Below the pieces are notes generated by a model. That model made no database searches. It had not been told where the DNA came from and was given only the letters and a program-made list of their open reading frames with translations. A DNA stretch of 64,000 nucleotides from a virus (lineage: Duplodnaviria; Caudoviricetes). A program made the position numbers and the translations under genes. Location: the IMG/VR virus record IMGVR_UViG_3300037067_011504, positions 1 to 64,000 of that record; one strand, written 5' to 3'. This document shows, one piece after another, positions 22,101 through 56,328 of the stretch; the stretch's first letter is position 1, and every line of letters begins with the position of its first letter.

Positions 22101-25100
22101 ATCATGATGGTACAACAAGGACATACAGAAATGATAACATAAGACCTATCATGTATGAATCGGAGAAGATAGATACATATAATCAAAGGACATTTGGTAT
22201 GGGATTCCTTGGGATGATATCGACATCAAGAAAGAATAATCCACGATATATACAGTTTATCTATCCTAATGAAAGACAGACACCATTTGGTGTTGACATA
22301 AATGTTCTTAAACCTGATAAGCTTATCAAAGCAATAGAAGCAACGATAACACAGATGGTAAACAGAAATGCAGAAAAAGAAAAAGATGTTGAGAATTATA
22401 ACTCTGATAGCGTAGTAGGTTTCGAAGTATTGCGTGAAGTAATAGGAGATAGAAAGATAAGTGAGATAAAGAAGAATGAGATACCAGGTATAGCAAAGAA
22501 GATATATAACATCCTTGATAAGAAGTCATATACATTAACTGATAATATCATTAAGAGTCGTATGCCATTAGATAGTTCATTACCAAAAAGAGATATGTTA
22601 AATAAACTTATCGATAAAGAACTTTATCCGGAATGGTCAACGAAAGTATTTCCTGTTAACAGAGGTGGTTATCTATCTCCTTCACAGACATGGGATCAGT
22701 TTGAAGCGATACATAAAGATAAAGGGATAACAAGAGAGAATGCATATAGCAAAGGATTTCAAAGAGAATATAATATAAAGAATGAACATCTCCAGCCATT
22801 GGTATCATTATTCTATATTAATAACTATGTTAATGGTTATCATTTTGCACAACTTGCTGCAGGTGATCTTGCATCATTTAAAGATAGTGATAATCTTTCT
22901 GACCGGTTATCATTAGCTTTTAGTCCTGGTAAGACAGGATTAGTGAATGATAAGTATGGTATGAGGGCAAAGGCAAGAATAGCAGTGATAGATGATCCTG
23001 TTAATGATATTAAGACTGTAGAGGATTTCCTTAAGACATTGCTTAAAGAAGAAGATGTTGCTGATGTGCTTAAGCTATTTGATCCGGAAGGATCTATGCC
23101 AGCTGACTCACAGGGATTCATGTTACCGGAAAGACGTGATGATATAAACTATGGGTTTGGTGATGATATGGGATCAGTACTTAAACCATCATATTATAGT
23201 TATGACATTGATGGTATCGCAAGAGCAATAAAATACTCGTCTGTAGTACTTACTGATGATCTTTGTGACAGACATCCGGCATTAAGCCTGTTACGTAATA
23301 AGATGCGTAAGAAAAATATTGATGAGGTGATATTCAATAGTGCTTTGAAGTTAGGTAATCCTATTGTTAAGAATGACTGGTATAAACTTACCGATGCTTC
23401 GCAAGATATTGATATAGATGACTTGTCAGTATTTGATATTGATAACAGGGATTTCCGTATACAGCTTGATCCTGCAGCTAAGTTAGATGCTAAGGTATCA
23501 CATCCTACACAACTATCATATATGTTACGTTTATATGGTATCAATGATGAGCAGGCAATAGGGATATATAACTCTATAAGTAAGATTATAGAGAGTAATC
23601 AAAAAACATTATCTGAATGGACAAGTGGTAAATCATTTGTTAATATACTCAAGAATTTTACTAATAAGAAAGGACAGGAGAATCTCTATGATCTTCTCAT
23701 GAGTGGTATAAATCATAATTTTCCTTCAATAGCTGACAGGTCATTGGTGCATTATATATCATCAGTATTTAAAAAAGCAGTTAAGGTTGTATATAATGGA
23801 TCAAAACTTGTTCTACAAACAGCAAAAGGTATTGAGAAGAATTATAAGGATATTAAACTACCTGATCATCTACAAAGAGAATTACAATATAAGAAAGATA
23901 AGAATGGTAGATTATATGCTGAATGTATTATACCGGAGGGCATGCTCCCAGCAGACATAGAGAATAAAATAAAAGAATATCTTAAGAAAGATTCTGAACC
24001 GGAAGATTTGTTTATGTTTCTTGGGCAGGAGTCAAAAGATATGATAGGATTTCGTATACCATCATCCGACTTACATAGTGCAGTAGCAATAAAGGTAGCA
24101 GGGTTCTATGACTCAAAAGGAACAAATATAATCGTTGCTCCTGAGATGTTGATACCAATAACAGGATCAGACTTTGATATAGATTCATTGTTTGTTATTA
24201 AGAGGTCATATGTAAAAGCATATAGTAAGACAATACCTGTAGGATATATAAAGAAAGGAGACAAGTATGTTTTTGATGGTGATGCATCATTTCTTAATAA
24301 CGTTGACAATAAGTTATTAAGAGAGGTAACAGAAGCATATTATACTAATGCTATCATGGAGGGATTCATTAATATCATCACTGATGAGAAAAACATCAAG
24401 AGGATGTTATCGCCTATATCATTCGTGAAGCTTAAAGGAGAAAAAGACAGGATGATAAAAGCTACACGTCAACAGAAGAAGAAAAGAGATATATCAGATA
24501 CCATACAGGCGCAGGAGATACATAATGATATATTTACAGGAGAGGTAGCTATTGGTATGTTCATGAACATGGTTAAAGGTTTCGCATTCCTTCACAAGGC
24601 AGAGAAAGGTGCTAAGATAACTCATCTTAAAGAGACAGCATCAGGGACAGATGATAATATAAAGAGTCCTGTTAGAATCTCATTCAATGATAGGTTATAT
24701 AATGAAATGACAGATATTGATGAAGCAGGAGAAGAAGTAGGATTCAGGTTTGATTCATTGGGTAACGCTGCACTAGATAACAGGAAACAACATATATTAT
24801 CATTTCTTAATATAAGCAGGGAGACATTAAGACCATACTCTATATTGGTTATGCATGGTGTAAAGACAGAGACGATAAATAATTTTATATCGCAACCCAT
24901 ATTAAGAAGTCTGTCTAAGTATGGTTATGGTGAAGGTAACAGGATAAAGAAGAGTATAGAGGAATTAGTAACACAGAATGAGATTGATACTGTAGAGACA
25001 TTCTATGATACAGAGATGGAGAAATATCTTAAGTATACTCCGGAGGATATAGATGTTATTCTTTCGAAAGATAAGATAACGCCAACAGAGAGGAAGTTTC

Positions 25101-28100
25101 TAATATATCAGGCAAGGGTGTATGATATGTATACTGATCTTAATAAGATAGGTAATGACATAGCATCATTATCAAAGATAACAAATGTGAATCGTAAGTT
25201 TCCAAATTCTGTAGATGCCATGGAGACTATATTGTCATCTGCCAAGAAGATAATGGGTATACCTGAGAGTGGCAAGATAACAGATACACCTAATGACGAT
25301 AAGAGTGACTTTCCTTATTACGTATCTAATTTCTGGACAGCAAACCCTCATGTATATAGTGCTCTTAAGTCAATGCAATGGACAGTAGATAATATTAACC
25401 AGGAATATATATCATATGGTAAACAGTTCAGGTCAATAGCTAATAAGGTATATAACAATACTAAGCTTAAGCTTGATCAACAGTTAGACATAAGTAAGAA
25501 GAAGATACGTGATGAATTCACCAAGTTTCTTATGTCAACTCTTATCGACAGGAAGGATATAGATCCGGTAACTATAACTGTAAGAGGAGAACAGATAGTA
25601 CTTACCGACATAGCTGCATTTAACAGGTCATTCATCGATCTTATCAAACAGGCTAAGAAAGATGATTACATGAAGAAGATAATGTCACAGAATAAGAGTA
25701 AAGAAGAGAGATATAATGGTAATATATTTCTTAATACATTATCATTTGCATCTGATGCTGAGACAGGACAAGAAAAGATAATATTTCATGGTCCGGCAAC
25801 GATGGACATAGGTGATCTTAACTTATTTCGTGAGTCATTTGAGGAGATGAATAATTTCGATTATGTAAAGAAGAATGGTGTATATGAACAGGTAAAGAAA
25901 GATACGGATGGTTATTCACAGTTCCAGAAGATGTTTGTCACATATGCCATGCTTAACTATGGTATGAACTTTGGTCTTCGTAACTATTCAATAATACTCC
26001 CTGGTGATATATATAAAGAGGAGAGTGATAAACTTGTGGCATTGATGGCAGATATAAATAATCTTAAGACAAATGAGATAAATAATGTAGTTAATGTTTT
26101 CGAGGCACAACTGATAAGTAACTTTCCTGAGAGTGCTCAATCAGAAAGGATAACTATAAAACCACATGCTAAGACTATCGTTGATCCAAAGACGAAGAAA
26201 TGGATGGACATAAAATATGGTAAGAATCCTGATGGGATATATTATGACAGGTGGTTTGAGAGTGAGATAGTACGTACATGGCCCAAGTATCATGTTGAAT
26301 CATTTGGTAAGAAGTTCAAGATATTTAAGCGTACATCACCAGAGGAAGGATTAGCAGTATATTATACAAGGATAGGGACGAAGAACAGGATACCTATATA
26401 TAGCATACATTCATTACAAGACATGAAAGAGTATGATGAAGATGAGGCATTCAATCAGAAGATACTTCATGTCAAAGGGAGGGTTACTAAGAGTGGGTTA
26501 TTTGAAAGTAAGGCATATGATCTTACTATGGGAGATAAGATAAGTATAACAGATTATAGTGATGCAGCTAAGATATATCCTGTTACTTATGAAGTCATTG
26601 AGAAGAAGGCATCTGGTATATATAAGGTTAAGCCGTCTGTTCCTATACGTGATAAAGGATATTATGATAAACCAGATGGTGAAGCACAAAGATTATATGA
26701 TACAATAACAAAACGACTAAGGAGTAAAGAAGGACCATTTAGAGCTGGTAAGATGGGAAGGATATACTTCAGGAAGAACCTTGAAGGAAAGGGTAGGTTA
26801 TTACGTCAACAACTGAATAAGGAGATATTTGCAGGATATAATGTAATTAAGGAGAGGGTGACAGCATCCGGATGGCAGGTATATATTGATATGGATACAA
26901 TAAAAGAATATTTGTTTGGTGAACAACTTAATCTATTTGATAAAGGATATAAAGAATCAGAAAGTAAAAGAGATATTGTAAGTATATTATTTAATCAGGC
27001 AGTAGACAATAATATATATTGGAACGAATTCCAGGAATCATTACAAAGCATAGATGAGAATATTGAAGATAAGATAAATGAACTAAGTGCATTATATGAT
27101 GGTAAGACAGTGGATCAGCTTCTTAATGATATAGAAGGTGATGAAGATACTTCTTCATTCGAGAAGATGATAATACGATGGATGAGACCATATCTTAAGA
27201 ATCTTAAACCGGAATTTGTTGGTAACAGGAAATTAAAAGATGGTAGACTAGGAGAGTTCTTATCTACCGGACAGTTCTCATTAGATTATAATCAGTTAGC
27301 AGAGAGAGATAAGACACAATATGATATAGATAGGATCATACTTCATGAGTTGATGCATGGATTGACTATCATACAGTTTAAAGGAGATAGTAAGTTTAGA
27401 GCAGAGTTGAAAGAAAAGATCAGACTGCTTAAGAAAGGTAATCCAGCATTGGCAGAGGAATATTCTTATGCTTTCTCAGATGAAGAAGAGTTTATATCAG
27501 AACTATTTACTAATGAGAAGTTTTTTAACGCATTAAACTATATTAAGATACCTTTAAAAGAGAAGAATATATTAAGGATAATAGGTGAATGGATAATGTC
27601 ATGGTTTAAGAAAGGTGCTGATATACGTACCGGTGACAGATTGATGTCATGGATAAAGAATAATATAACTCCATTAGAATATATTAAAACAGAAGAGATA
27701 GAAATATTATCGAGAGGATATGAAGATGAAGAAATGAATAAGATAATAGACCAGGGATTGAAATATATCGTACCAATAAATGATAAAGGAGAGGAAGAAG
27801 ATCATTATATAGATATAGATGATAAAGGGAAAATATTTAAAAGAGTAACAGATATATATAATGGCTGGGCATCATATTTTCGTAAAAAAGGAGACAGGAA
27901 AACATTTGGTGAGAGAGAGGCTGATTCGGTATGGAAGTATACAGAGAAGAATATTCCAAAAACAATAGATGGTAAGGAAGAGACATACGATCAATACAAA
28001 GAACGTATGGACAAGGTGATGATTGAAGCATCTACCAGAGCAAGAATAATCCACTTAATCGATCAACGGTTTATTGATAGATTATTTAATAATAGTCATA

Positions 28101-31100
28101 ATCAAGGACTGATAAATAGCAAGATACAATTACTTGCATATAAAGATTATAATATTATTGATAGCGAAGGAAAAACATATACTATAAACATTAATGTTGA
28201 TCCGGAAAAGATGAACTGGTATGAAGAGAATATTGAGAAGATATATAAGATTCATGGAATAAACATATTTGATAACTGTAGTGCCGATCTGAAAGATATA
28301 TTAGCATCAGAAGTAACAGTAGCATCAGAGGAGTTAGGTATAGCAGGTACGATAGATAAGCTTATAAAGCATGCTGATGGTACATATTCTATAAAAGATA
28401 TCAATACAGGATCTAACTTCGATAATACATTATCTAATAGATTGTTTAATTATGGTGATCAAAATAGACAGTTGATAGATAAGCCAAGGGATAGGAAGAA
28501 GTTACAGATAATGACATATGCCTTCATGTTGAAAGCGAATAATCCTGATATCAAGTTCCGTAATCTTGATGTGATGTGGATACCTAATAGTTTCCAGGCT
28601 ACTCATTTTGATAATATGCGTAAGGTAGAGGTTGATGACTTTCTTAACATGATGAAAGCGTTTTTACAGGATAAGGTAGCACTTAAAGAAGTAGGGATAG
28701 ATGAAGAAGTATATGAAACATTGGTAAGTAAATCAAAAGATATATTTAACGTAACTCATTATACTCATGGATATACTCTTAAAGAGGAAGGATTAGATAT
28801 TGTTGATGAGACAATAATAGCCGAGAAGCTTGCTGATGATCTTATAGTTAGTGGTGATCCGCCTCATATAGTGGCAGAGAAGAAGATTAATGAGTTAAGA
28901 AAGATAATAGGTAAAGCTCCGGTTATAATTAATATAGGGAAGAATAAGTATGAGAATCTATCTAAGACTGATCGTGTAAGAGCAAGGATGCTTACTTCAC
29001 AGATACTTCAACTGATAAAGGATCCTCAGACTACATTATATATGAATCCTGAAAATGATGTATCACTAGTCACTCAATGGATAGGTAACTACTATGATAT
29101 AAATAATCCTTATGTTAAGGTATGGAAACAGTTTAGGAATAAACAGGAAGATATTGCTAAGAAAAAACATTATGATTTGTTTAATGAGTTTCAATCATAT
29201 CTTAAGCCGGTGACAGATGAATATTATGCAAAACATCCCACATTAAGTAAGGGATGGCTTAATAACCTTAACTATAAAAAACTATATTCATTTGCATATA
29301 TGGAGTTTGATAATAACGGATCAACACAAGAGAGGTTAATAACAGAGAACGACACAGAGAAATGGAACGTATTAACAGATAAACAAAGAAGACTATTATC
29401 ATTTATAAATAAGATATATGCATCATACTTTGGTAAGGGATCATATACTGATGAGGTAGCTACATATGTACCAGAACATGGACAATTGAATCCTATATCA
29501 GTGATAGATCTATTTAATAAGGGTACTGATGATGTACGTAAGTTTAGATATATCCCAGGGTTCTTTCCTAAGATACCAAAAGAAGATTCTGAACATATAT
29601 TTGACTTTGGAGAAGGCAGTTATCTTAAAGGCTTATTCAGTAAAGGATATTTCAAACAAGCAGCACATGAGAGCTTCACATTCTATCTTGAGAACCAGTA
29701 TGAAGGCAGACAACATGCTAATATGGTATTGCCATTAAAATATATGGGTAGTTTCCAGATAGATAATAAGAGAGATTATTCACGTAATATCGAGTTTCAG
29801 TTTGACAGATTCATAAAGAGTATAGAATATAAGAAAGCTATGGATCCTGTATACGCATTTGGAGAGAGTGTAAGAGGTTATCTTGATCTGCAGAATGATA
29901 AAGATCAACCTATGTATACAAACACTGTTAAGATGCTTGAGATGAAACTTACACAAGATGTACTTGGCAGAACGATAAGGAAGAGATTGGTACGTAAACC
30001 TATTAAATGGTTTGGTAAGGAATATGAAGATAGAGAGGTTAAGGCTGATGCAGTATTTATCCTTATGAGAAGATGGGTATCGGCTACCACCATGTGGCTT
30101 AAACCATTTACGGGTACAGCGAATGGTGTACATGCTAACTACCTTAAACATAAAGATGGATTAAAAGGTACTATAGCAAATAAGATATTTGGGATAGATA
30201 ATGATGCAATTGATTATACTCTTTCTGATAGTCTTGCTGCAGATAAAGTATATTTTACTGAACATATAGTAAATGCCATGACTGGTAAGATAAGACAAGA
30301 TAAGACATGGTTATTACTTAAGAAACTTCATTACCTACCTGATAACTTTGATTTCATGTCATCTGAGAAGTATTTATTATCATTACGTAACAGGATGATA
30401 TCAGAGAGTACGATGTATACTTTTCATAGGATACCTGAAGAGTTTGTTGCTATGACAACAATGATAGCACAACTTAAACATCTTAAACATCCTACTATTA
30501 AGAAGAATGGTAAGAAAGTCAGCTTATGGGATCTATATGAAGTAGAGAAAGATGCAAATGGTATATATGACATAGTATGGAGAGGTGGATCGAGAGGTAA
30601 GATAAAGAAAGGATCAGGAAAAGAAGTGACATACGAAGATATGAAAGAGTTGCTTCCAAAAGAGATAGTTAAGTTAAAACGTGTTTATGAACGTATGCAA
30701 GGTGGTTACAGAAAAGAAGAGGCAGCAGCATTGGAAGTATATGTTCTCGGAAAAGTATTCATACAGCTGAAGAAGTACGCACCACGTCTATTACTTAATG
30801 CGTTTCAGAGTAAACGATGGGAAGATGATCTTGGTATGCTTAAAGCAACAGGAGAGAGACATGAAGAAGAAGATGTATACGAATGGATGGAAAGACTTAA
30901 TGAAGGACGATTCAGGATACTTGGTAAGTTCTTATTCTCTACTATGATGATGGGAAGTGGGAACAGGGAATATAAATGGAGTAACATGCCACCGGAATTC
31001 AAACAACATATCATTGATGCATGTCTCACATTGGGTATATGGGCAACATCATATACAGCATATCTTAATATGTTTGGTGATGATAAGGATGATGATACAC

Positions 31101-31444
31101 TTAAACGTATGTGGAAGATGTATCTATTACAGAACCTTAGTCAACAGTATAATCCTATTGAGTTACTTAAATTAACTAAACAGATGTTAGAACCTGTAGC
31201 ACTTACTAAGGCTATTGATACGTTTACAGCTATGGGGACACTTATGGCAGCAGGATTCGATGCAGGAGTACATGGTGATGCAGAGTTGTTATTTACTGAT
31301 AAGGGTGATCTTAAGGGATGGAATAATCTCAGAAAAGCATTGCCAGGATTAGCAAGTTATACGGATGCTATCAAGAGGATAGAAAACTTCGGTGATATAG
31401 ATGTACAGTTTAGTCGTGTAGCTTCATTTGGGAAATATAGATAA
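13130..31444 (+). CDS. giant virion RNA polymerase polyprotein (6104 aa)
   Basis: GFRIPS...GSDFDIDSL catalytic loop (DFDID at 24170-24184) as in crAss-like vRNAPs. Also an SF1 helicase Walker A GNAGTGKT (16859), HEVFH (20105), HELMH (27344), a PD-(D/E)xK-like domain (~28300-28560) and N-terminal hydrophobic helices. Confidence 0.92.
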   Translation: MGKKQGTKTFADMMEGIEQPISANNVPEQYTPFISGNEPTKKNPLEGFNMNFPDPYRSKQYVDQGGKYFIGTPQTAFTSSVKGENQPWPSKLLNGLIGNTIAVSTKVNTAVGEIGGGLFDLLTMPIPGVTEERKKQYGTATPHLFENFYTEFIKHVENDIVKDKLFPVYGGQAYNTDNLISQMGDMKLWSSDLADAVAFTVAAYTPVAALSKVSTLMKLGKNASKIFQTIATSGWNTVQEASLEAQQGLQDIRETLSADMFKSTYAGLSKEQQAEVNQKAGSHAANIFNTNLAILAGPNLIQARFFIGPVKSSKSRLMKGVLSGKVTKESIGVAKSVLKQSGLGIVSEGAWEEGSQQAVQDYEKNRALGMEYDNRLGGYAYQWLNNFYTTEGQKSMFLGAIVGGGMGARSGIVDARADRKFVEEYSNKYQDALKNRFPLYDNVLPNNIKHFLKSYNKETTDKDGNKAIGKTVLNERGEIEPDVYKMGKLFAGSMQQKSLFSNLAMANLNMDEVHEKFFVNEGLLQMFYKYMSDPIFDDSNIAFDTMMEREGIKALSEDEELSKLGFDYNDLSVQLHKMKTEWDNIHKKLYSRKDLDNTDQENEFKRNVVKGILYERMKLHVLDDIEQIVEDKDQLDPIRDDARKYIDMYEDKSERNKLFEEYTKETSARIDLIKQLKDQYVKDPASVDTKKLEYLIEEESMINGSPVTNDRFSLIQRPEDKTGEFGLRNQYYLNIGMDAIAGARLQSAINNVQDSNGTLKEAVDILTKEKYDVRKEDIQAVKNLIPIERKRVESNRYTSDMFNADISALYSKQAGGEMTGEEVRIASQELEKQLEESDIIVNDMEDAIDRLNAIDPKSDGKGLLNYMDGMPRHITDDYSFMRKVADVPINEADDLIKTVRANPDSYDKVRKVEELIERLNDRKNIYKKTELKQRLDNKAFKGYIKSIDDILKIIKKEILPVAEKNYTEKQNTDSRHQVNRNHKRFEGLGMTISDIDEVIPTDSDIYNAIISIIGNDELKKILASAKEASELGNEYSFNEIFVDRIIASIKQKEKEKKTEGSFKRLIESKYNTGTTEIENLYMSYQTKATKSDREMIKKYKRNPKKLFKTVIEFIVGYKRLNTSEKFAIDRYYINNDILEFRDNISNETDIGYTGLTKEQILSFINKHIQVEALQDIISDFDNDYDIKKQIKAENDAYIEMKKAPTNQQVTVIRSAVKWALSPLKRVFETDKKYHRFKTWLFIRGNAGTGKTQFVMKFLTRCLSVKSNEIFAVAPHQNAADMIDKSLVTSNKTTLIKDLTVDSISNDIKFVLIDEVAALTNPELIALSNTLQAINEKRQVPFRVIAFGDPSQASAQEEGTTKSFDPVINRNMTDGIEYLEVTDPLTVRHRSIIPEINELLDIYEGNDRIVAGLTVYASNMIGYESIGVHAGTLSDMDTQLKVHNSNGKTKAIVVFSNKEKANMISRHPDMTDNVYTYTEVAGQEFGEVYVDLSRNQFRDNSEFNKAFYTSISRSQQYIFFNDKGGTFNNQAKQSIKDKYDKGDYQKEQSKIFDARKKEYEKRLEFDNNVLSGIKTRKKEEKVVIKKGTESAEEDQYIPSETEDVTGKEEPDSNANMEKIEQKITSSAFKHILAFPSYIGSKFIRAKGNTSKLLPNSEVIYVKTEDKTNEHKYTIHILGQLYDNNNQPLNNRYAHLGIVSEEELASDFGQKLMSNYEKSFNKEGEELFNTITIDRTSDVVNLTNSKGEEYTKTILATGKLALAQPLTYKYSDKITYKGEGFIDKVIDLFSHRYLDRAKEKASYSIVIYTNNNKPAERFAGVPYLIIEPVSKKGLKKDKQYISLNPRNISSGNRHIKVLRSFTEEITKLEEYVGSKLGISPFNEMITMFSRNFHIEGDDITFAGKNLLFEEYNNLAKRGFVIPLDKKQFNHVAETIEPIIKGLYSKDKIKKRIKNEDEMKKLYKLDENNKSDDAIYEFRPATRKDKEGNIIDKGYGYVYKFSLANKEDKGTYEYEDGLKIGGGEAQVSLNVIAKANHYVNSKSIRVKTKKRRTETGALMKTATYVTTAKSLLDTNEYSEGYYRMVRELFKENNINIFYDVTFKDGSTRKVEDRYITDDNIEAVENYLIDEGIKTREELDELKNSFITEPITSDRLRDISMFDGDEHPELRTPLEKDGKWGINTLGEDIEANKEILEQLLQTNIEDILQTDIHVAVDENTAIDNEPEISEEKKEKDLGKKSKEVASRIFKGIRKKLLSGIPILGKRIYESDIIKIIRKSIPGIGKEGVVFLEKQMIDRLADEEAWGLYEDGIIYLAKNDDGTVYENIARHEVFHKIYNEYLTAKERKEIDDMAQKEFKDYDKFSSIEELLAVKYHEWKRGRLEKISDYFKNLFKRIMAFLGIYENNIDSINDLFYKIENGFVDYRYSKGDNTRRLMKDIKKEFGTINNYIESCDYVLAMLGEYRENGINGIPSERGEIIDEIIRDTINRIDTLRKLLRTSDEPAYRYELDRLLMITKNMKDIVNDLFPGFNNYADGLYRSTIEEEELESIIDEMDEDEVVNLNKHIIENSKLNSEVDISDDIREFISYIKNDDGEFVSWRYAYIKLLGMLEGVNLEDDNFIDQILEKFKVAETDKGVSRHDMNTNETAVFKTLQTLKNIIDTNTYKAVRLPMTVRFVSGDTFFYSNKSVEDVNSISDARVLSGEVSYTKKNKGESSKDFFNRITKLSDISKEKIIQIYKKEQARLILARLTSHFNSHRQRDPKIGTIKSSFGGHEVKYFDAKGNAVTTGVRSAIASQIANKFQEKTDIEKFINGPLRKWNDAYYKDPLSFVKDFFRYIGLSEYSGSLKNKSMSMIMGDINAFFTTASQEMNKPQQSEKDDEVSDTIDNNEVDNTVSIGKILSDEGSGMLTRLTAAVSLMDNLSRILSSQDGKGHKRYNAVLSTQIHKKIFGLINSRNIHGVGDNKFINIRSVFNNKFFQKNIFINGLNKIYSIIDHDGTTRTYRNDNIRPIMYESEKIDTYNQRTFGMGFLGMISTSRKNNPRYIQFIYPNERQTPFGVDINVLKPDKLIKAIEATITQMVNRNAEKEKDVENYNSDSVVGFEVLREVIGDRKISEIKKNEIPGIAKKIYNILDKKSYTLTDNIIKSRMPLDSSLPKRDMLNKLIDKELYPEWSTKVFPVNRGGYLSPSQTWDQFEAIHKDKGITRENAYSKGFQREYNIKNEHLQPLVSLFYINNYVNGYHFAQLAAGDLASFKDSDNLSDRLSLAFSPGKTGLVNDKYGMRAKARIAVIDDPVNDIKTVEDFLKTLLKEEDVADVLKLFDPEGSMPADSQGFMLPERRDDINYGFGDDMGSVLKPSYYSYDIDGIARAIKYSSVVLTDDLCDRHPALSLLRNKMRKKNIDEVIFNSALKLGNPIVKNDWYKLTDASQDIDIDDLSVFDIDNRDFRIQLDPAAKLDAKVSHPTQLSYMLRLYGINDEQAIGIYNSISKIIESNQKTLSEWTSGKSFVNILKNFTNKKGQENLYDLLMSGINHNFPSIADRSLVHYISSVFKKAVKVVYNGSKLVLQTAKGIEKNYKDIKLPDHLQRELQYKKDKNGRLYAECIIPEGMLPADIENKIKEYLKKDSEPEDLFMFLGQESKDMIGFRIPSSDLHSAVAIKVAGFYDSKGTNIIVAPEMLIPITGSDFDIDSLFVIKRSYVKAYSKTIPVGYIKKGDKYVFDGDASFLNNVDNKLLREVTEAYYTNAIMEGFINIITDEKNIKRMLSPISFVKLKGEKDRMIKATRQQKKKRDISDTIQAQEIHNDIFTGEVAIGMFMNMVKGFAFLHKAEKGAKITHLKETASGTDDNIKSPVRISFNDRLYNEMTDIDEAGEEVGFRFDSLGNAALDNRKQHILSFLNISRETLRPYSILVMHGVKTETINNFISQPILRSLSKYGYGEGNRIKKSIEELVTQNEIDTVETFYDTEMEKYLKYTPEDIDVILSKDKITPTERKFLIYQARVYDMYTDLNKIGNDIASLSKITNVNRKFPNSVDAMETILSSAKKIMGIPESGKITDTPNDDKSDFPYYVSNFWTANPHVYSALKSMQWTVDNINQEYISYGKQFRSIANKVYNNTKLKLDQQLDISKKKIRDEFTKFLMSTLIDRKDIDPVTITVRGEQIVLTDIAAFNRSFIDLIKQAKKDDYMKKIMSQNKSKEERYNGNIFLNTLSFASDAETGQEKIIFHGPATMDIGDLNLFRESFEEMNNFDYVKKNGVYEQVKKDTDGYSQFQKMFVTYAMLNYGMNFGLRNYSIILPGDIYKEESDKLVALMADINNLKTNEINNVVNVFEAQLISNFPESAQSERITIKPHAKTIVDPKTKKWMDIKYGKNPDGIYYDRWFESEIVRTWPKYHVESFGKKFKIFKRTSPEEGLAVYYTRIGTKNRIPIYSIHSLQDMKEYDEDEAFNQKILHVKGRVTKSGLFESKAYDLTMGDKISITDYSDAAKIYPVTYEVIEKKASGIYKVKPSVPIRDKGYYDKPDGEAQRLYDTITKRLRSKEGPFRAGKMGRIYFRKNLEGKGRLLRQQLNKEIFAGYNVIKERVTASGWQVYIDMDTIKEYLFGEQLNLFDKGYKESESKRDIVSILFNQAVDNNIYWNEFQESLQSIDENIEDKINELSALYDGKTVDQLLNDIEGDEDTSSFEKMIIRWMRPYLKNLKPEFVGNRKLKDGRLGEFLSTGQFSLDYNQLAERDKTQYDIDRIILHELMHGLTIIQFKGDSKFRAELKEKIRLLKKGNPALAEEYSYAFSDEEEFISELFTNEKFFNALNYIKIPLKEKNILRIIGEWIMSWFKKGADIRTGDRLMSWIKNNITPLEYIKTEEIEILSRGYEDEEMNKIIDQGLKYIVPINDKGEEEDHYIDIDDKGKIFKRVTDIYNGWASYFRKKGDRKTFGEREADSVWKYTEKNIPKTIDGKEETYDQYKERMDKVMIEASTRARIIHLIDQRFIDRLFNNSHNQGLINSKIQLLAYKDYNIIDSEGKTYTININVDPEKMNWYEENIEKIYKIHGINIFDNCSADLKDILASEVTVASEELGIAGTIDKLIKHADGTYSIKDINTGSNFDNTLSNRLFNYGDQNRQLIDKPRDRKKLQIMTYAFMLKANNPDIKFRNLDVMWIPNSFQATHFDNMRKVEVDDFLNMMKAFLQDKVALKEVGIDEEVYETLVSKSKDIFNVTHYTHGYTLKEEGLDIVDETIIAEKLADDLIVSGDPPHIVAEKKINELRKIIGKAPVIINIGKNKYENLSKTDRVRARMLTSQILQLIKDPQTTLYMNPENDVSLVTQWIGNYYDINNPYVKVWKQFRNKQEDIAKKKHYDLFNEFQSYLKPVTDEYYAKHPTLSKGWLNNLNYKKLYSFAYMEFDNNGSTQERLITENDTEKWNVLTDKQRRLLSFINKIYASYFGKGSYTDEVATYVPEHGQLNPISVIDLFNKGTDDVRKFRYIPGFFPKIPKEDSEHIFDFGEGSYLKGLFSKGYFKQAAHESFTFYLENQYEGRQHANMVLPLKYMGSFQIDNKRDYSRNIEFQFDRFIKSIEYKKAMDPVYAFGESVRGYLDLQNDKDQPMYTNTVKMLEMKLTQDVLGRTIRKRLVRKPIKWFGKEYEDREVKADAVFILMRRWVSATTMWLKPFTGTANGVHANYLKHKDGLKGTIANKIFGIDNDAIDYTLSDSLAADKVYFTEHIVNAMTGKIRQDKTWLLLKKLHYLPDNFDFMSSEKYLLSLRNRMISESTMYTFHRIPEEFVAMTTMIAQLKHLKHPTIKKNGKKVSLWDLYEVEKDANGIYDIVWRGGSRGKIKKGSGKEVTYEDMKELLPKEIVKLKRVYERMQGGYRKEEAAALEVYVLGKVFIQLKKYAPRLLLNAFQSKRWEDDLGMLKATGERHEEEDVYEWMERLNEGRFRILGKFLFSTMMMGSGNREYKWSNMPPEFKQHIIDACLTLGIWATSYTAYLNMFGDDKDDDTLKRMWKMYLLQNLSQQYNPIELLKLTKQMLEPVALTKAIDTFTAMGTLMAAGFDAGVHGDAELLFTDKGDLKGWNNLRKALPGLASYTDAIKRIENFGDIDVQFSRVASFGKYR

Positions 31445-47279: not shown

Positions 47280-48053
47280 TTAAAGATTATTTGCTATTTT
47301 ATTAATATCATCTGTTATGAGTTCTGTAAGAGTAACGATACCCTGAGTAGACAATAGTGTCTGTCCATCAGGTAACATCAAGGAATTTAAGTCAAGACCC
47401 ATGATAGCTATCTTAAGAGATTTTTGTAGTACAATAGACTTATCATTAGCTTTCTTTAATTCTGCCTTAATACCATTCTTAGACTCTACTGATCCTAATC
47501 CTGATCTATCAACGATATATTTACATAATACATTTGATATATCAGCTATCTGAGTATGACTTGTTACCTTTTTATCTGTATTATTAGATACCTTTGCACA
47601 TAATAGCATTGCAGCTTCATAAGATGACTGAGAAATGATACTCAATATCTCCGGTCTTGATCTTACATATTTATATTCTGCCGATTTATCTTTATTGACT
47701 TCTGTTCGTGGTCTTTTACGTTTCTCTTTTTCAGCCTCAGTATAATCAATGAAATTATCTATTTTTCCTTTAGGACCAATAGATACTTCATATTCTTCTC
47801 CGATAAGAAATTTAGTTTGATTTTTAGAGTTAGTTGAAAATTGACCGATTGTATCATCTTCTGCTTTTAGATCAAAATAATAAATAGTATTTTTCGTGTC
47901 AGGAACAGTCCATTCTCTATTAAACACTACATCTTCTACTTTAATTTTTTTTGTTTCCATAATTGTTTTTTTTGTTTTCTTATTAAAATATTCACTTAAT
48001 TCTTCTCCATAAGCACTACCTAATATGGCAATATCTTCTGCTGTATCGCCCAT
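47280..48053 (-). CDS. putative ssDNA-binding/annealing protein
   Basis: Beta-rich OB-like N-part and I-x-QSS-x-AA helix; lies between the exonuclease and ATPase. Confidence 0.4.
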   Translation of the reverse strand: MGDTAEDIAILGSAYGEELSEYFNKKTKKTIMETKKIKVEDVVFNREWTVPDTKNTIYYFDLKAEDDTIGQFSTNSKNQTKFLIGEEYEVSIGPKGKIDNFIDYTEAEKEKRKRPRTEVNKDKSAEYKYVRSRPEILSIISQSSYEAAMLLCAKVSNNTDKKVTSHTQIADISNVLCKYIVDRSGLGSVESKNGIKAELKKANDKSIVLQKSLKIAIMGLDLNSLMLPDGQTLLSTQGIVTLTELITDDINKIANNL

Positions 48054-49582
48054 TAAAATAATGCTTTATTAGATGTTTTTGTTTCTTTTGTTTTCTTATC
48101 CTTAGACTTTTTCTCATATCCAACTATTACGAGTTTATCCAGACTACGATCTATCTCATCAACAAACATGATCTTTCCGTTTGCTTCTGCAATATCATAT
48201 AGTCTGTCAAGCTTATTAAAGTCAAGTAATGATGCATCTCCTAATATCTGTATAGGAGTAGTATTCATCTTACACATTAGTTGTGCTACTAATAGTATAG
48301 TGTCTGATTCACATGTCTGATGTTCGTCAAATCGTAATCCATTTATTGTAAGATAACCATCTTTATCGAATAGAAGATTATCTACCGGGAATTCTCCTTC
48401 TGTTATTATCAGTTCTTTTTGTTTTCTACATTCTTCTATTATCTCTGTTAATGAACTACTTTTCTCAAATACTTTTTGATATTCATCATTATATTTATTA
48501 TACTTCTCAAGCTTAAGAGTTAATTCTTTCGCTTTGTCGACATAATTAACACCTCTTTGTATGATAACTTCCAGTTCACTAATCTTCTTCTGTATATCAG
48601 GATCATCAACAACAGTCTTTATCTTCTTATTTACTTCTTCAATAAGTTTATTTGATTCTCCTAACAATGTAAGATATTCAGTACGTTTAGCATCATGTAA
48701 TTCTGTTTCTTTTTTAATGTTCTCTTCTTCTGATTTAATACGTTCTTCAAGTATACGTATTTGTTCTTGATGATCTTTTATCCGTTGTTCGGAGAATTGT
48801 TTTGTCTTTGTAAGATTAAGATTAAGATTAGTAATATTTTCATTAATCCGTTCTTTTTCTTTCTCTGCAGTGGTTTTCTCAAGTTGAAGATTTATTACTA
48901 TTTGTCCGGATTCATTGAGTTTCTTATGTTCATCTTGTCTCAATGTGAGTTGTTTCTTTGCAGCATCAAGATTCTTTTGTATCTCCGATTCTTCTTTTGT
49001 TAGTTCATACTCTTTAACAAATCCTTTTGACAGATTAACCTGATTGTTTACTTTTGTTCGTTCATTAAATGATAGTTCTTCATTTGCTTCAAATTCCTTA
49101 TATTTAAGAAATGATTCACTCGGTAATAAGTTAAGGATATATTCTTTTTGTTTTCGTCTTCCTTCAGCTGATCTGCTCCATGATATGAATTCCGTGGCAT
49201 CAACATGATTATACTTAAATATATCACGCATATCGGTAATCTTTGATATCTTATTACCTTCATCATCAAAGATCACGAATTTAGTAGTGGTATCGGTAAA
49301 CTCATATACCACATTATACATCTTACCATCAGGACCAGGTATGATAAACTCATTGGATCCTTCGGTTTCGCCTATTGTGACCTTCTGTGGAGTATCATCT
49401 TTAATCTCATGAGCAGCTCTTAATGCTTGTAGAATGCTACTTTTACCTACTTCATTACATCCTTTAACAAAATAGATATGACTACCTTGTAATGTAAATT
49501 CTTCTTTTTTTAAAAGTTTGTAATTGTAGAATGACAATTTAATCTCTTGTTCTGTTACATCTAATAGTTTTTTCTTTTCCAT
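48053..49582 (-). CDS. SMC/Rad50-like ABC ATPase with coiled coil
   Basis: Walker A GCNEVGKS, long coiled coil, degenerate signature and D-loop (CESD, LGDASLLD). Confidence 0.8.
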   Translation of the reverse strand: MEKKKLLDVTEQEIKLSFYNYKLLKKEEFTLQGSHIYFVKGCNEVGKSSILQALRAAHEIKDDTPQKVTIGETEGSNEFIIPGPDGKMYNVVYEFTDTTTKFVIFDDEGNKISKITDMRDIFKYNHVDATEFISWSRSAEGRRKQKEYILNLLPSESFLKYKEFEANEELSFNERTKVNNQVNLSKGFVKEYELTKEESEIQKNLDAAKKQLTLRQDEHKKLNESGQIVINLQLEKTTAEKEKERINENITNLNLNLTKTKQFSEQRIKDHQEQIRILEERIKSEEENIKKETELHDAKRTEYLTLLGESNKLIEEVNKKIKTVVDDPDIQKKISELEVIIQRGVNYVDKAKELTLKLEKYNKYNDEYQKVFEKSSSLTEIIEECRKQKELIITEGEFPVDNLLFDKDGYLTINGLRFDEHQTCESDTILLVAQLMCKMNTTPIQILGDASLLDFNKLDRLYDIAEANGKIMFVDEIDRSLDKLVIVGYEKKSKDKKTKETKTSNKALF

Positions 49583-49848: not shown

Positions 49849-50218
49849 TATGTTCTGTATATTTAAGTTGTTCTCTTACCTTATCAATAGTATTACTATC
49901 TACTGATCGTGTCTTATTGAAGAATTCATCGAACTCTTTATGTAGATATTTCTCATGGTTTGTCTCATAGTTAACACCTAGAAAAAACCAGTTAATAAAT
50001 CTATTATGTTTAATATCTAACTTTCTTATATTTATTTCATGTCCTAAGTAAGTAAATAGAGGAAATAGTATATTTAGTAATGGTATAAACCATATCTCGT
50101 ACATTATATATTTTTTATAATGTATAGGATCTTTGTGTGTTTGTGCTTTTATATCAAGATATCTTCCTAAGAAGATCGTTATTATATAACTAACTATTAT
50201 CAAAATCACCGTCATCAT
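49835..50218 (-). CDS. membrane protein
   Basis: Two TM segments, WFIPLLN. Confidence 0.55.
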   Translation of the reverse strand: MMTVILIIVSYIITIFLGRYLDIKAQTHKDPIHYKKYIMYEIWFIPLLNILFPLFTYLGHEINIRKLDIKHNRFINWFFLGVNYETNHEKYLHKEFDEFFNKTRSVDSNTIDKVREQLKYTEHSGTV

Positions 50219-51995
50219 TTATTTCTTTAAATATGTTGTATCCAAGATCTGATATAAATCTGAATATTGAATTAGTATCGATATTGCTATCATCTCTGTT
50301 CTTTATCGATTCAACAATAAACAGATTATCTATATAATTTCTTAGATTCTTATTATTACCATACAAATAAATACTTCTATCAGATTTATCAGATGGTAGA
50401 TAGTTTTCGTTAAACATCTTCTTTACTATGAAGATGAAGATAGATTTTTTTCTATCTGCTTGAGATATATACTTTTCATCCTTTCCTTTTAATCGACTAT
50501 CTACATAGTGAGAATATTCAGTATATTTCTGTATTATACTCGAGAATGTTATTATTTCTCCATTAGCATATTTAGATTCATTATTTAATAATGTTCGTAG
50601 TTTTACAAATGTCTCTGTTCGTAGATCAGTTATTGCTTCTGTTTCTTTACATCTTTGACTGTTTATACTCCATAAATGCTTATCAAAATTAGTTTCTGTA
50701 AACTCAATATCTTTTGTTTTAATGAATGTTAATGGTATTCTTTTTTCTTCTCTTATCAGATCAGGATACTTATTTATAAGATTAACGAATAGTGCCTGTT
50801 GAACATAATCAAGTATCCTGGTTGATCCTTTAAGATATTCCTTACGTGGTCTATAACCATCATCTATATTAGCCTTACGTGATATCTCCTTAGTAAAATG
50901 ATGAATAAGTATCACTGATGATCCTGTTACATTAGCTATCATCTTAATCTTACTGGCTATATGATCATCTCTTTCTAGTCCGGTTAACTTACAATCTATT
51001 AATCCGAGATTATCTATTATAATAACTCTTTTATGAGTTTTATATTTATCACTAAATTGTCTTGACCTGGTTACTATATTACCTATTGATGTTAACTTAT
51101 CATAGAATTCTATTATATAATCCTGATATTTAACTGATGCTATCTCTATCTTTTCTATGTCTTCATCTGTTATATTATAATTTATTGATTGCAGTTCTTT
51201 TGTTGTCATCTTCATATCACTTGCAAGGAATCCTCTTATAATCTCTTCTCTATCTTCTTCAAATGAAAACCATTGAACAGCAAGATTAGGTTCGTTAGCA
51301 AGCATACCACGAATGATCGATAATGTAAATTTGCTTTTTCCTGATCCCTCAGAACCTGCTATGATACATACATATCCTGTACGAAATGTAAATAATTTAT
51401 CTATTCTTATATATCCTGTCTTTATTACTCTGTCATTATCTCCTTTGGATGATTTTATTATCTTATTTATTGTAGCTGTTAGTGTATGCTTAAAATTATC
51501 ATGTACACTGCCATCGAATTCAATAAGATCAATTATAAAGTTTTGAATATGACTTATTATATCCATAGGATCTATCAATGATTCAAAAGATTTTGAATTT
51601 ACTTCAGATGATAATCTTATCAATTCTCTGAAGAAATACTTATCCATTATGATCTTAACATGAGATTCGATATTAGCTAGTTCCATCCCTGACAACTTAG
51701 TAAGATATATTGCACCGTCTATATCTTCTAATATATTATGATTACGCATATATTCAGTCAATATGACTAAATCCGGATGTTTATCATTAACATATAGATC
51801 TAATATAGATTTATATATTTTTTGATGAATATCTTTATAGAATACTTCAGGTTTAAGAAATGGGAATTTACCAATAAGATTATATTGATTGATTATCGTA
51901 CCTATTACATGCATCTCGATATCGGTAGCTTGTGGCGGTATTTTACCAAAATCAAGAGACATGATAGGATTATTCGTTTTTTTAATATTAGTCAT
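50190..51995 (-). CDS. dnaB: DnaB-like replicative helicase with a large C-terminal insert
   Basis: N-domain GKIPPQA...FY---HQ-IY; Walker A GSEGSGKS; FSFEE; IIIDNL; LKGS; KNRD arginine finger. Confidence 0.9.
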   Translation of the reverse strand: MTNIKKTNNPIMSLDFGKIPPQATDIEMHVIGTIINQYNLIGKFPFLKPEVFYKDIHQKIYKSILDLYVNDKHPDLVILTEYMRNHNILEDIDGAIYLTKLSGMELANIESHVKIIMDKYFFRELIRLSSEVNSKSFESLIDPMDIISHIQNFIIDLIEFDGSVHDNFKHTLTATINKIIKSSKGDNDRVIKTGYIRIDKLFTFRTGYVCIIAGSEGSGKSKFTLSIIRGMLANEPNLAVQWFSFEEDREEIIRGFLASDMKMTTKELQSINYNITDEDIEKIEIASVKYQDYIIEFYDKLTSIGNIVTRSRQFSDKYKTHKRVIIIDNLGLIDCKLTGLERDDHIASKIKMIANVTGSSVILIHHFTKEISRKANIDDGYRPRKEYLKGSTRILDYVQQALFVNLINKYPDLIREEKRIPLTFIKTKDIEFTETNFDKHLWSINSQRCKETEAITDLRTETFVKLRTLLNNESKYANGEIITFSSIIQKYTEYSHYVDSRLKGKDEKYISQADRKKSIFIFIVKKMFNENYLPSDKSDRSIYLYGNNKNLRNYIDNLFIVESIKNRDDSNIDTNSIFRFISDLGYNIFKEINDDGDFDNS

Positions 51996-52009: not shown

Positions 52010-52510
52010 TTATGATAATTGATTTTGTTTTTTAAAGTCCTGATATTTTAATTTCATTTCAAATACTAAAGAAATCCATTCTTTATATTTCCATTCAGGA
52101 TGTTTCTCTCTTTGTAATGCAGTACTTTGATCTACAAATTGATGAAATAATGGAGCTACTACTCTGATGTTTTCAGGATTTAATTTCCAATAAGTATATC
52201 GTCCTTTTGGTAATACATGAGCAAAACATGAATACCACATATTTGTTTCTTTTAAATCAGTTATATCAATTCCTGTGAATTGACAAATAACTCTTCCTTT
52301 TTCATTTTTTGCTTTTTCCCAACACCAGTTAAAAAGATCTATTTGATTTTCAAAACCAAATGAAAAATCTTGTATAGATTTTTTTTGACTTTTATAAGAT
52401 ATTTTTTTATTTACTTTTTTATCTGTACGGAGATATTGATGATTACAACAAAACCCATTAGAAAATACATTTTGATAACATCCCTCTTTTTTACATTGTT
52501 TCATACGCAA
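52010..52510 (-). CDS. HNH-like nuclease with Zn finger (NinG-like)
   Basis: CxxxGC...C-NH, CQFTG, FAHVLPK...NI...H. Confidence 0.65.
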   Translation of the reverse strand: MRMKQCKKEGCYQNVFSNGFCCNHQYLRTDKKVNKKISYKSQKKSIQDFSFGFENQIDLFNWCWEKAKNEKGRVICQFTGIDITDLKETNMWYSCFAHVLPKGRYTYWKLNPENIRVVAPLFHQFVDQSTALQREKHPEWKYKEWISLVFEMKLKYQDFKKQNQLS

Positions 52511-55770: not shown

Positions 55771-56328
55771 TTATCCCGGAATAACAGATAATGAATAATT
55801 ATCAAGTAACTGTTTTCTTATATCAAGTGGAACATGATTCTTAATCCAGATCTTAATAAGATTGGATTTATTATCAATCTTAGTTATCATTATTCTATTG
55901 ATATGCTTATTAACAGAATTAAGTTCTTTTTCAAGTTTTTTTTTAATCTTATTTAGATCTGTTATTGTAGGAACACTAACTCTTTTACTATTCCAATCAT
56001 TAATAAGTTCTAATGATTTACGGAAGTTGAAAATCATTTCAATATCCTTCGTATATAATAGATTATTTACTGTTTTAATAGCATGGAGTACTGTTGCGTG
56101 ATCTCTTTCACCATGATGAGATCCAATTATTGCCAAACTATATCTACTATATTTTTTAGATAATGTCATTGATAGTTGTCTGGCTTCTACATATTCTCTT
56201 TTCCTTGACCCGGGATATCTATCAGGTAAAAGCATATATTCGATAGAAACACCTGTTGCTTCAGATACCTTACTTTGAATAACATCTATAGGAATATTCT
56301 TATATAATAATTTATCAAGCATGATCAA
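55771..56328 (-). CDS. stand-alone DnaA C-terminal (domain IV) DNA-binding protein
   Basis: SRKREYVEARQLSM-L...SL-IIG...RDHATVLHAIKTV; no AAA+ domain. Confidence 0.88.
   Translation of the reverse strand: MIMLDKLLYKNIPIDVIQSKVSEATGVSIEYMLLPDRYPGSRKREYVEARQLSMTLSKKYSRYSLAIIGSHHGERDHATVLHAIKTVNNLLYTKDIEMIFNFRKSLELINDWNSKRVSVPTITDLNKIKKKLEKELNSVNKHINRIMITKIDNKSNLIKIWIKNHVPLDIRKQLLDNYSLSVIPG

Follow-up and report, generated by a model that had tools for sequence, protein, structure and literature searches.

A DnaB helicase of a distant crAss-like phage carries an inserted domain homologous to a small protein encoded next to dnaB in related phages

How ring helicases are loaded onto DNA is a central question of replication, and to our knowledge the DnaB-family systems investigated to date all employ a loader that is a protein apart, binding the helicase and then leaving it. 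In phage SPP1, a small loader with a helical N-terminal domain (G39P, 126 aa) is encoded by gene 39, which lies immediately upstream of the dnaB-type gene 40 and overlaps it, and SPP1 relies on the primase and polymerase of its host. DnaC of Escherichia coli is an AAA+ ATPase. Both DnaC and lambda P (PDB 6BBM, 6QEL) contact DnaB in the groove between its adjacent RecA domains, including hairpin 419-439 and W457 (PMC6391071; PMC9912922). VdhL1 and VdhL2 of Vibrionaceae are small, non-homologous, phage-derived helicase loaders that were found from synteny and co-evolution with dnaB and that promote DnaB's activity as a helicase in vitro (PMC11087808). In this study, we analysed a stretch of 64,000 nucleotides (the window) of the IMG/VR virus record IMGVR_UViG_3300037067_011504, a source record of 93,765 bp estimated to be 96 % complete, of which the window covers positions 1-64000. 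Its dnaB gene (50190-51995, minus strand), recognized from the list of open reading frames (ORFs), Pfam, PHROG 19 and Foldseek, encodes a helicase of 601 amino acids (aa), P0001, that carries a helical domain within its ATPase core. It is very likely that this domain is a copy in cis of a partner protein that related phages encode in a separate gene beside dnaB.

Like canonical DnaB, P0001 has an N-terminal collar, a linker and a RecA core with Walker A and Walker B motifs, motif H4 and an arginine finger. Unlike canonical DnaB, which has a hairpin of ~12 residues at the corresponding place, P0001 and its clade have a domain of ~130 residues. The distance from motif H4 (LKGSTRILDYVQQALFV; aa 388-404, window 50784-50834) to KNRD (aa 565-568) is ~160 residues in P0001 and 22 in E. 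coli DnaB (alignment A9), so the insert that a preliminary description of this DNA had proposed between these two motifs is real. Measured against the nearest insert-less relatives (alignment A7), the net insertion comprises aa ~420-548 (window 50352-50738, ~130 residues), with the junctions ...EEKRIPL and ...YLYGNNKNL. The helices at aa 407-419 and 549-557 are also present in the insert-less sister helicases and so belong to the helicase core of the subfamily; the extent of aa 413-556 proposed earlier was therefore right to within ~10 residues at each end, except that it took in parts of these helices. A weakly conserved linker of ~15 residues (aa 420-434, window 50694-50738, minus strand), with a mean pairwise identity of 0.30 and a predicted local distance difference test score (pLDDT) of 52-53 in a model of the insert alone, leads into the inserted all-alpha domain (aa 435-547, window 50355-50693, minus strand), which was delimited by the profiles A3 and A4 described below, by hhalign and by AlphaFold2 (AF2). 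Its signature motifs are F..LW.IN, KY.EY, R[DE].KY, YNE.[FY] and R..YLYG, and its 113 residues include 15 aromatics and 19 K+R against 15 D+E, a slight positive charge.

The AF2 model of full-length P0001, made from an input alignment of 26 sequences, has a mean pLDDT of 80.7 and places an all-alpha insert between the strands E400-406 and E558-566. A model of the insert alone, from 43 sequences, reached a pLDDT of 81 (84-96 in the core) and a predicted template modelling score (pTM) of 0.72, in agreement with the earlier expectation that the insert is structured. Its mean pairwise identity (0.44) equals that of the N-terminal domain (0.42), meaning that both are equally conserved. Pfam and PHROGs gave no consistent family for the insert, for the C-terminal 206 aa or for 30 free homologues. 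Foldseek with the insert-only model found nothing significant (best E 1.1 in PDB and 0.7 in BFVD), and VIA-align of the insert against 48,161 chains gave a best Z of 4.2, from which no fold could be assigned. In the ESM Atlas, scores were at most 0.86, for unnamed clusters of 124-142 aa auto-labelled 'mobilization protein (fragment)', a label that we keep as a lead only, and P0092 had no match.

A search with aa 380-601 of P0001 recovered 70 protein clusters, nearly all of 583-615 aa and several on contigs of 86-101 kb, a size in keeping with crAss-like phages. In all, the insert-bearing clade counts more than 75 clusters of ~590-615 aa. With aa 1-405 as query, all relatives above ~38 % identity (~75) carried the insert, followed by a sharp fall in identity, as helicases of 465-513 aa reached 31 % at most. 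The insert is a trait of the whole clade, which diverges to ~26 % identity, and it is under purifying selection. The preliminary description had named beforehand, as an outcome that would speak against its reading, that such inserts might be general in this DnaB clade; the insert is indeed general there, a clade trait, which by itself does not make it an ordinary feature of DnaB.

To find relatives outside the helicase, we built profile A3 from the insert alone (ten sequences from the window and from loci) and ran it against 1.84 billion representative proteins. In addition to long helicases and fragments, it found ~77 free proteins of 88-167 aa, with E-values down to 5e-16. These proteins begin with Met and have the motifs F..LW.LN..G, KY.EY, RD.KY, YNE.F and RD.YL[FY]G as in the insert; those of a short class (~110 aa) stop exactly at ...YLYG, the C-terminal junction of the insert. 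Profile A4, built from 30 of the free proteins, matched the genome at window 50328-50702 (E 8e-24), its sole copy in the 93.8-kb genome, and the most distant insert-bearing genome (G005) likewise has one copy only. Comparing A3 with A4 by hhalign gave a probability of 99.75 % (E 1.9e-27) over 107 columns. The free-protein family was found in neither Pfam nor PHROGs, and in a tblastn search of P0001, P0111 and P0097 against 50,697 phage records neither the insert part nor the free proteins had a match, which may mean that this clade is absent from that collection. These data suggest that A4 represents a new family of small proteins, to which the insert of P0001 belongs by profile match.

When the long class of free proteins was traced with a degenerate DNA pattern, seven loci came up in metagenomes of the Joint Genome Institute (JGI) and none in IMG/VR. 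At all five of the loci L019, L020, L021, L024 and L025, a dnaB-type gene directly follows the small gene, which according to the ORF calls overlaps its start. The helicases are of normal length (476-498 aa) at L019, L020, L024 and L025, and the helicase frame of L021 is split in two; at L023 the contig ends. A second, diverged copy of the small gene is found directly downstream of dnaB in L024 (L024:3653-3973, plus strand; E 3e-19 with the hidden Markov model [HMM] of the family), in addition to the upstream copy, and this duplication around dnaB may represent an intermediate for the insertion. From the helicase side, a search with an alignment of insert-less relatives (A8) gave 80 dnaB loci in IMG/VR. 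The HMM found the small gene in exactly the five closest of them (L027-L031, L029 and L030 being duplicates), where it ends at 2962-2986 and dnaB starts at 2932-2989; at the ~70 other, more distant phage dnaB loci it found no small gene within 3 kb. In total, the small gene stands directly upstream of a dnaB of 467-509 aa at nine distinct loci, mostly overlapping its start, an arrangement shared with SPP1 genes 39 and 40. The order of the genes downstream of dnaB in L025 (ATPase, two further genes, RadC) is that of the window, and therefore the split and the fused states occur in related replication modules. The reasoning used here has a precedent in VdhL1 and VdhL2, which are also small proteins of unknown family recognized by synteny with dnaB; unlike the insert, they are free-standing and act on bacterial DnaB (PMC11087808).

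A maximum-likelihood tree was calculated for 65 helicases after removal of the insert columns. All 26 insert-bearing helicases, all eight split-type helicases and P0201, whose context is unknown, fell into one clade with a value of 99 in the Shimodaira-Hasegawa-like approximate likelihood-ratio test (SH-aLRT), and the 30 other phage DnaBs fell outside it. The interior of the clade is a polytomy of four lineages, three insert-bearing and one split-type; we therefore claim no direction, either between insertion and fission or between gain and loss. The tree allows a single origin of the insert. The character shared by this helicase clade is the partner module, provided in cis or in trans.

The site of the insertion was located with alignment A9, which contains P0001, E. 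coli DnaB, SPP1 G40P and relatives. LFIVESIKNRD stands over AEIIIGKQRNG, R567 corresponds to the arginine finger R442 and Y586 to W457, and the insert maps to the hairpin R420-I433 of E. coli DnaB, with the H4 strand on one side and that of the arginine finger on the other. Lambda P occupies the groove that adjacent C-terminal domains of DnaB form, residues 419-432, 429-439 and 454-457 of DnaB, among others, lie within 10 Å of it, and the contacts with DnaC predicted from hydrogen-deuterium exchange (HDX) are 295-304 and 431-435 (Chase et al., PMC6391071). W457 of DnaB is at the interface with DnaC (Cargemel et al., PMC9912922). By this alignment, the insert takes the place of the hairpin tip in the lambda P/DnaC contact surface, and from the mapping and the contact lists given above the inserted domain would lie in the inter-subunit groove. 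Lambda P and DnaC are nevertheless unlike the insert in that they are separate proteins of unrelated sequence and fold, which bind and then leave, whereas the insert is part of the helicase chain.

Taking these results together, we propose that the insert is a DnaB partner built into the helicase. In the sister phages, this protein (~105-165 aa, all-alpha) is supplied by a separate gene whose end reaches the start of dnaB or falls within it, and this arrangement favours production of the two proteins in a 1:1 ratio. In the clade of the window, the whole domain is located in the beta-hairpin of the RecA tier between H4 and the arginine finger. Judging from this site, the free protein may bind DnaB at or beside the hairpin, and the insertion would have fixed the partner-DnaB complex at six copies per ring. 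Its most likely job would be a loader-like one, to aid in the opening of the ring or its assembly on DNA, and this role may be combined with, or replaced by, the docking of parts of the host replisome. That it partners DnaB stoichiometrically in the manner of a loader is suggested by the overlap of the small gene with the start of dnaB, by the helical protein of 105-165 aa and by the position in the loader groove. The insert and the free protein are homologous, the free gene adjoins dnaB, the helicases of both kinds share a clade and the insertion has a defined position, and the evolutionary part of the proposal is well supported. The biochemical role that we read from the sequences is the more conditional part; with a loader or assembly role included, we consider the whole proposal probable.

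Several points weigh against it. Only about a dozen of the ~77 free proteins have a known genomic context; for the short class of ~110 aa, a pattern search of IMG/VR had no match, and none of its members was placed. The longest contigs that encode such proteins measure 15-26 kb (P0092 to P0103) and 82 kb (P0151). The small gene of L022 lies at the edge of its contig, and what comes next there is not dnaB but other genes. The E. coli mapping comes from an alignment of ~20 % identity, anchored by the H4 strand, R442 and W457, and it is from the insertion site alone that a docking site of the free protein is suggested. The insert has no detectable sequence or fold likeness to any known loader; compared with a single G39P sequence, hhalign gave 0.07 %, and the match to the G39P fold (1no1, Z 3.2) is within noise. 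We also know of no case in which G39P is inserted into a helicase. Known ring-breaking loaders must leave before the helicase is active; for a domain unable to leave, the part of a permanent subunit, structural or adaptor, would be at least as good a fit. The boldest form of the proposal, a one-piece helicase-loader in which a whole loader is inserted in the helicase's own loader-binding hairpin and the ring opens and closes on DNA without a free loader, is possible, and we hold it only tentatively.

Acidic C-termini of the type ...[DE]x[KP]PF, for example DDDRPF, DNSPF and GDGLPF, were observed on 13 of the 77 free small proteins, including P0111, P0112, P0121, P0133, P0136, P0151, P0160, P0163, P0168, P0176 and P0177. 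They resemble the C-terminal tip of SSB. Two split-type DnaBs are PF-tipped as well (L020:2181-3677 and L028:2953-4482), and such tips are also found on unrelated small ORFs that immediately precede the ATPase gene of the module (L027:4421-4633, L029:5016-5285 and L028:5508-6056). The PF tips suggest that these replication modules may have a shared docking partner.

These tips are relevant to an alternative in which the insert serves as a host-replisome adaptor and not as a loader, providing, on the RecA tier that faces the fork, a lasting platform for docking that would recruit host proteins (Pol III tau or alpha, DnaG, SSB or SSB-tip-binding proteins) to the phage helicase. In the genome, estimated to be 96 % complete, no PolA, PolB, DnaG Zn-ribbon or Toprim_2 was detected (the search did not extend to PrimPol-type primases), a domain that does not dissociate would suit a constitutive hub, and the SSB-like tips, which in L020 and L028 are on DnaB instead of the free homologue, are consistent with such a role. 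Nevertheless, the insert-bearing helicases themselves are without a terminal PF, the tips may not be specific to this domain, since small, unrelated ORFs within these modules carry them too, and the insertion site matches the loader groove and not a known site of tau or of primase. We consider an adaptor in place of a loader rather unlikely. The preliminary description had compared the insert with the C-terminal domain of replisome organizers or initiators, and a DnaD-like or replisome-organizer-like domain might direct the helicase to the origin by binding either the DNA there or a protein that itself binds the origin, such as the putative stand-alone DnaA domain IV protein at window 55771-56328. 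The insert, with its 15 aromatics and slight positive charge, does weakly recall the folds of the DnaD-like C-domain 2zc2 with a Z of 4.0 (root-mean-square deviation [rmsd] 2.5 Å over 61 residues) and 2i5u with a Z of 3.0, and BFVD matches named replisome organizer or RepA-like appear at E 1.5-3.6. However, these matches are tied with unrelated helical bundles, all the fold scores are inside the noise range that the tool states for such bundles, hhalign against the DnaD-like SPP1 G38P gave 0.28 %, and neither the insert nor 30 free homologues had a Pfam match to DnaD, DnaB_2 or Phage_rep_org, even with the limit set at E 10. With Foldseek values of E ~0.7 at least, a best Z of 4.2, hhalign values below 1 % for both G38P and G39P and no Pfam or PHROG family, the proposed likeness to an initiator finds no support, and an initiator role is very unlikely. 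Of the earlier idea of a helicase fused with an initiator or loader module, it is the partner or loader side that gains support, from the upstream free homologue and the hairpin site.

The insert might also be a remnant of selfish DNA, that is, a degenerate intein or homing element, or a neutral expansion of the loop at a surface hairpin. DnaB genes are classic hosts of inteins, the insertion site is a surface loop, and the clade does host inteins. Two homologues, P0018 (944 aa, on a 95-kb contig) and P0036 (933 aa, on a 41-kb contig), have genuine inteins with LAGLIDADG or Hom_end domains (PF05203, PF05204 and PF14528) at the P-loop, and that of P0018 interrupts the Walker A motif between GSGK and C, on top of the helical insert. 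An intein was considered for the insert of P0001 and rejected, in keeping with the preliminary description: P0001 has no Pfam match to Hint, LAGLIDADG or HNH, and the Cys/Ser...His-Asn residues of intein junctions are missing. Unlike the inteins of DnaB, which are elsewhere in the protein (in the P-loop in P0018) and are spliced out, the inserted domain stays in the protein, and the two coexist in the same chain. The insert is moreover under purifying selection and has free-standing homologues linked to dnaB. The selfish-remnant reading is thus largely refuted, and we give it hardly any credence.

Apart from the insert, P0001 is an ordinary DnaB. It passes as a member of the family with 65.8 bits for PF00772 (cut-off 23) and 62.6 bits for PF03796 (cut-off 27); its database copy, P0002, starts at M12 and has 590 aa. 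The DnaB N-terminal domain is at aa 20-118 (window 51642-51938, minus strand; PF00772, E 4e-18); in canonical DnaB this domain forms the collar that binds primase. The first part of the RecA-type ATPase core is at aa 191-419 (window 50739-51425, minus strand), as defined by positions 2-202 of PF03796, alignments A7 and A9 and the model strand E400-406. It contains the Walker A motif GSEGSGKS (aa 214-221) and closes with the helix NKYPDLIREEK, common to the insert-less sister helicases. The second part, at aa 549-592 (window 50220-50351, minus strand; alignments A7 and A9 and the model strands E558-566, E577-583 and E588-591), consists of the return helix KNLRNYIDN, the arginine-finger strand LFIVESIKNRD with R567 (window 50295-50297) and the last two strands with Y586. 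The Walker A GSGKS (K220), H4 and R567 (R442 in E. coli) can be aligned with E. coli DnaB and are invariant within the clade. The chain ends with an acidic tail, EINDDGDFDNS (window 50193-50219, minus strand; pLDDT 40), which has a conserved aromatic residue in alignment A1 and whose counterparts at the C-termini of homologues include DDGKF and DKGWE. The family matches break off before the insert or close to it: PF03796 matches aa 191-395 over positions 2-202 of 255 only, PHROG 19 ('DnaB-like replicative helicase') covers aa 15-428, and the PDB sequence matches and all tblastn matches of P0001 in the phage database end near aa 370-410; the rest of the RecA core resumes at aa ~558-592. Foldseek with the model of P0001 found the DnaB structures 8a3v, 7t22 and 2r6a (E 1e-21 to 1e-20; TM-score relative to the target 0.75 or less).

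A Cys-rich protein of 166 aa (CKKEGCYQNVFSNGFCCNHQY...), with no Pfam or PHROG match, is encoded directly upstream of the fused dnaB (window 52010-52510, minus strand), and a protein with a similar N-terminus (CQKTSCDRFVFSHGYCKVHQY) is encoded farther upstream of a split pair (L031:1282-1803). A P-loop ATPase of unknown function (PHROG 1499), ~450-510 aa long, is conserved downstream of dnaB in fused and split modules alike, with one to several small ORFs between them (window 48053-49582, minus strand; L025:3130-4485; L027:4654-6024; L029:5297-6655).

A virion protein of 1493 aa matches Crassvirales only, through its N-terminal part and with ~27 % identity in the matches listed, in the segment annotated 'stabilization protein', and the genome is therefore called a distant crAss-like phage. 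After it in the virion and transcription arm comes a single ORF of 6104 aa (window 13130-31444, plus strand), which is very large even among crAss-like phages. The inserted domain is missing from the four classified Crassvirales genomes examined, phi14:2, cr10_1, cr118_1 and crAss001. Two insert-bearing helicases of the clade, P0193 and P0196, are labelled by NCBI as coming from metagenome-assembled genomes (MAGs) of Asgard archaea (Hodarchaeales, Promethearchaeota); most likely, these are phage contigs that were binned into sediment MAGs. Like SPP1, this phage appears to rely on the primase and polymerase of its host. Many crAss-like phages encode a DnaG primase plus PolA or PolB (PMC7886860). 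Given that no PolA, PolB or DnaG-type primase of the phage was detected here, the helicase would have to engage host enzymes, and an environmental branch of the crAss-like phages thus replicates with a phage helicase, apparently together with host polymerase and primase.

In summary, the DnaB helicase of this phage is of a known kind and the accessory family inserted in it is new; in the literature searched, as far as its accessible text goes, no mention was found of a domain at this position of DnaB or of the small family. The product of a neighbouring gene inserted whole into a loop, and not fused end to end, is an unusual form of the 'Rosetta stone' evidence from gene fusion, and it gives a first functional handle, that of a DnaB partner, for ~77 clusters of hypothetical proteins without a Pfam or PHROG match. 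Since in the split form this domain is a protein of its own, probably coupled in translation, comparison of the matched fused and split pairs can directly test the binding place of the partner, its ability to open the ring and the consequences of its being unable to leave. If the proposal is true in its boldest form, these phages would have a natural one-piece helicase-loader, with a two-piece ancestral or sister state surviving in related phages for comparison.

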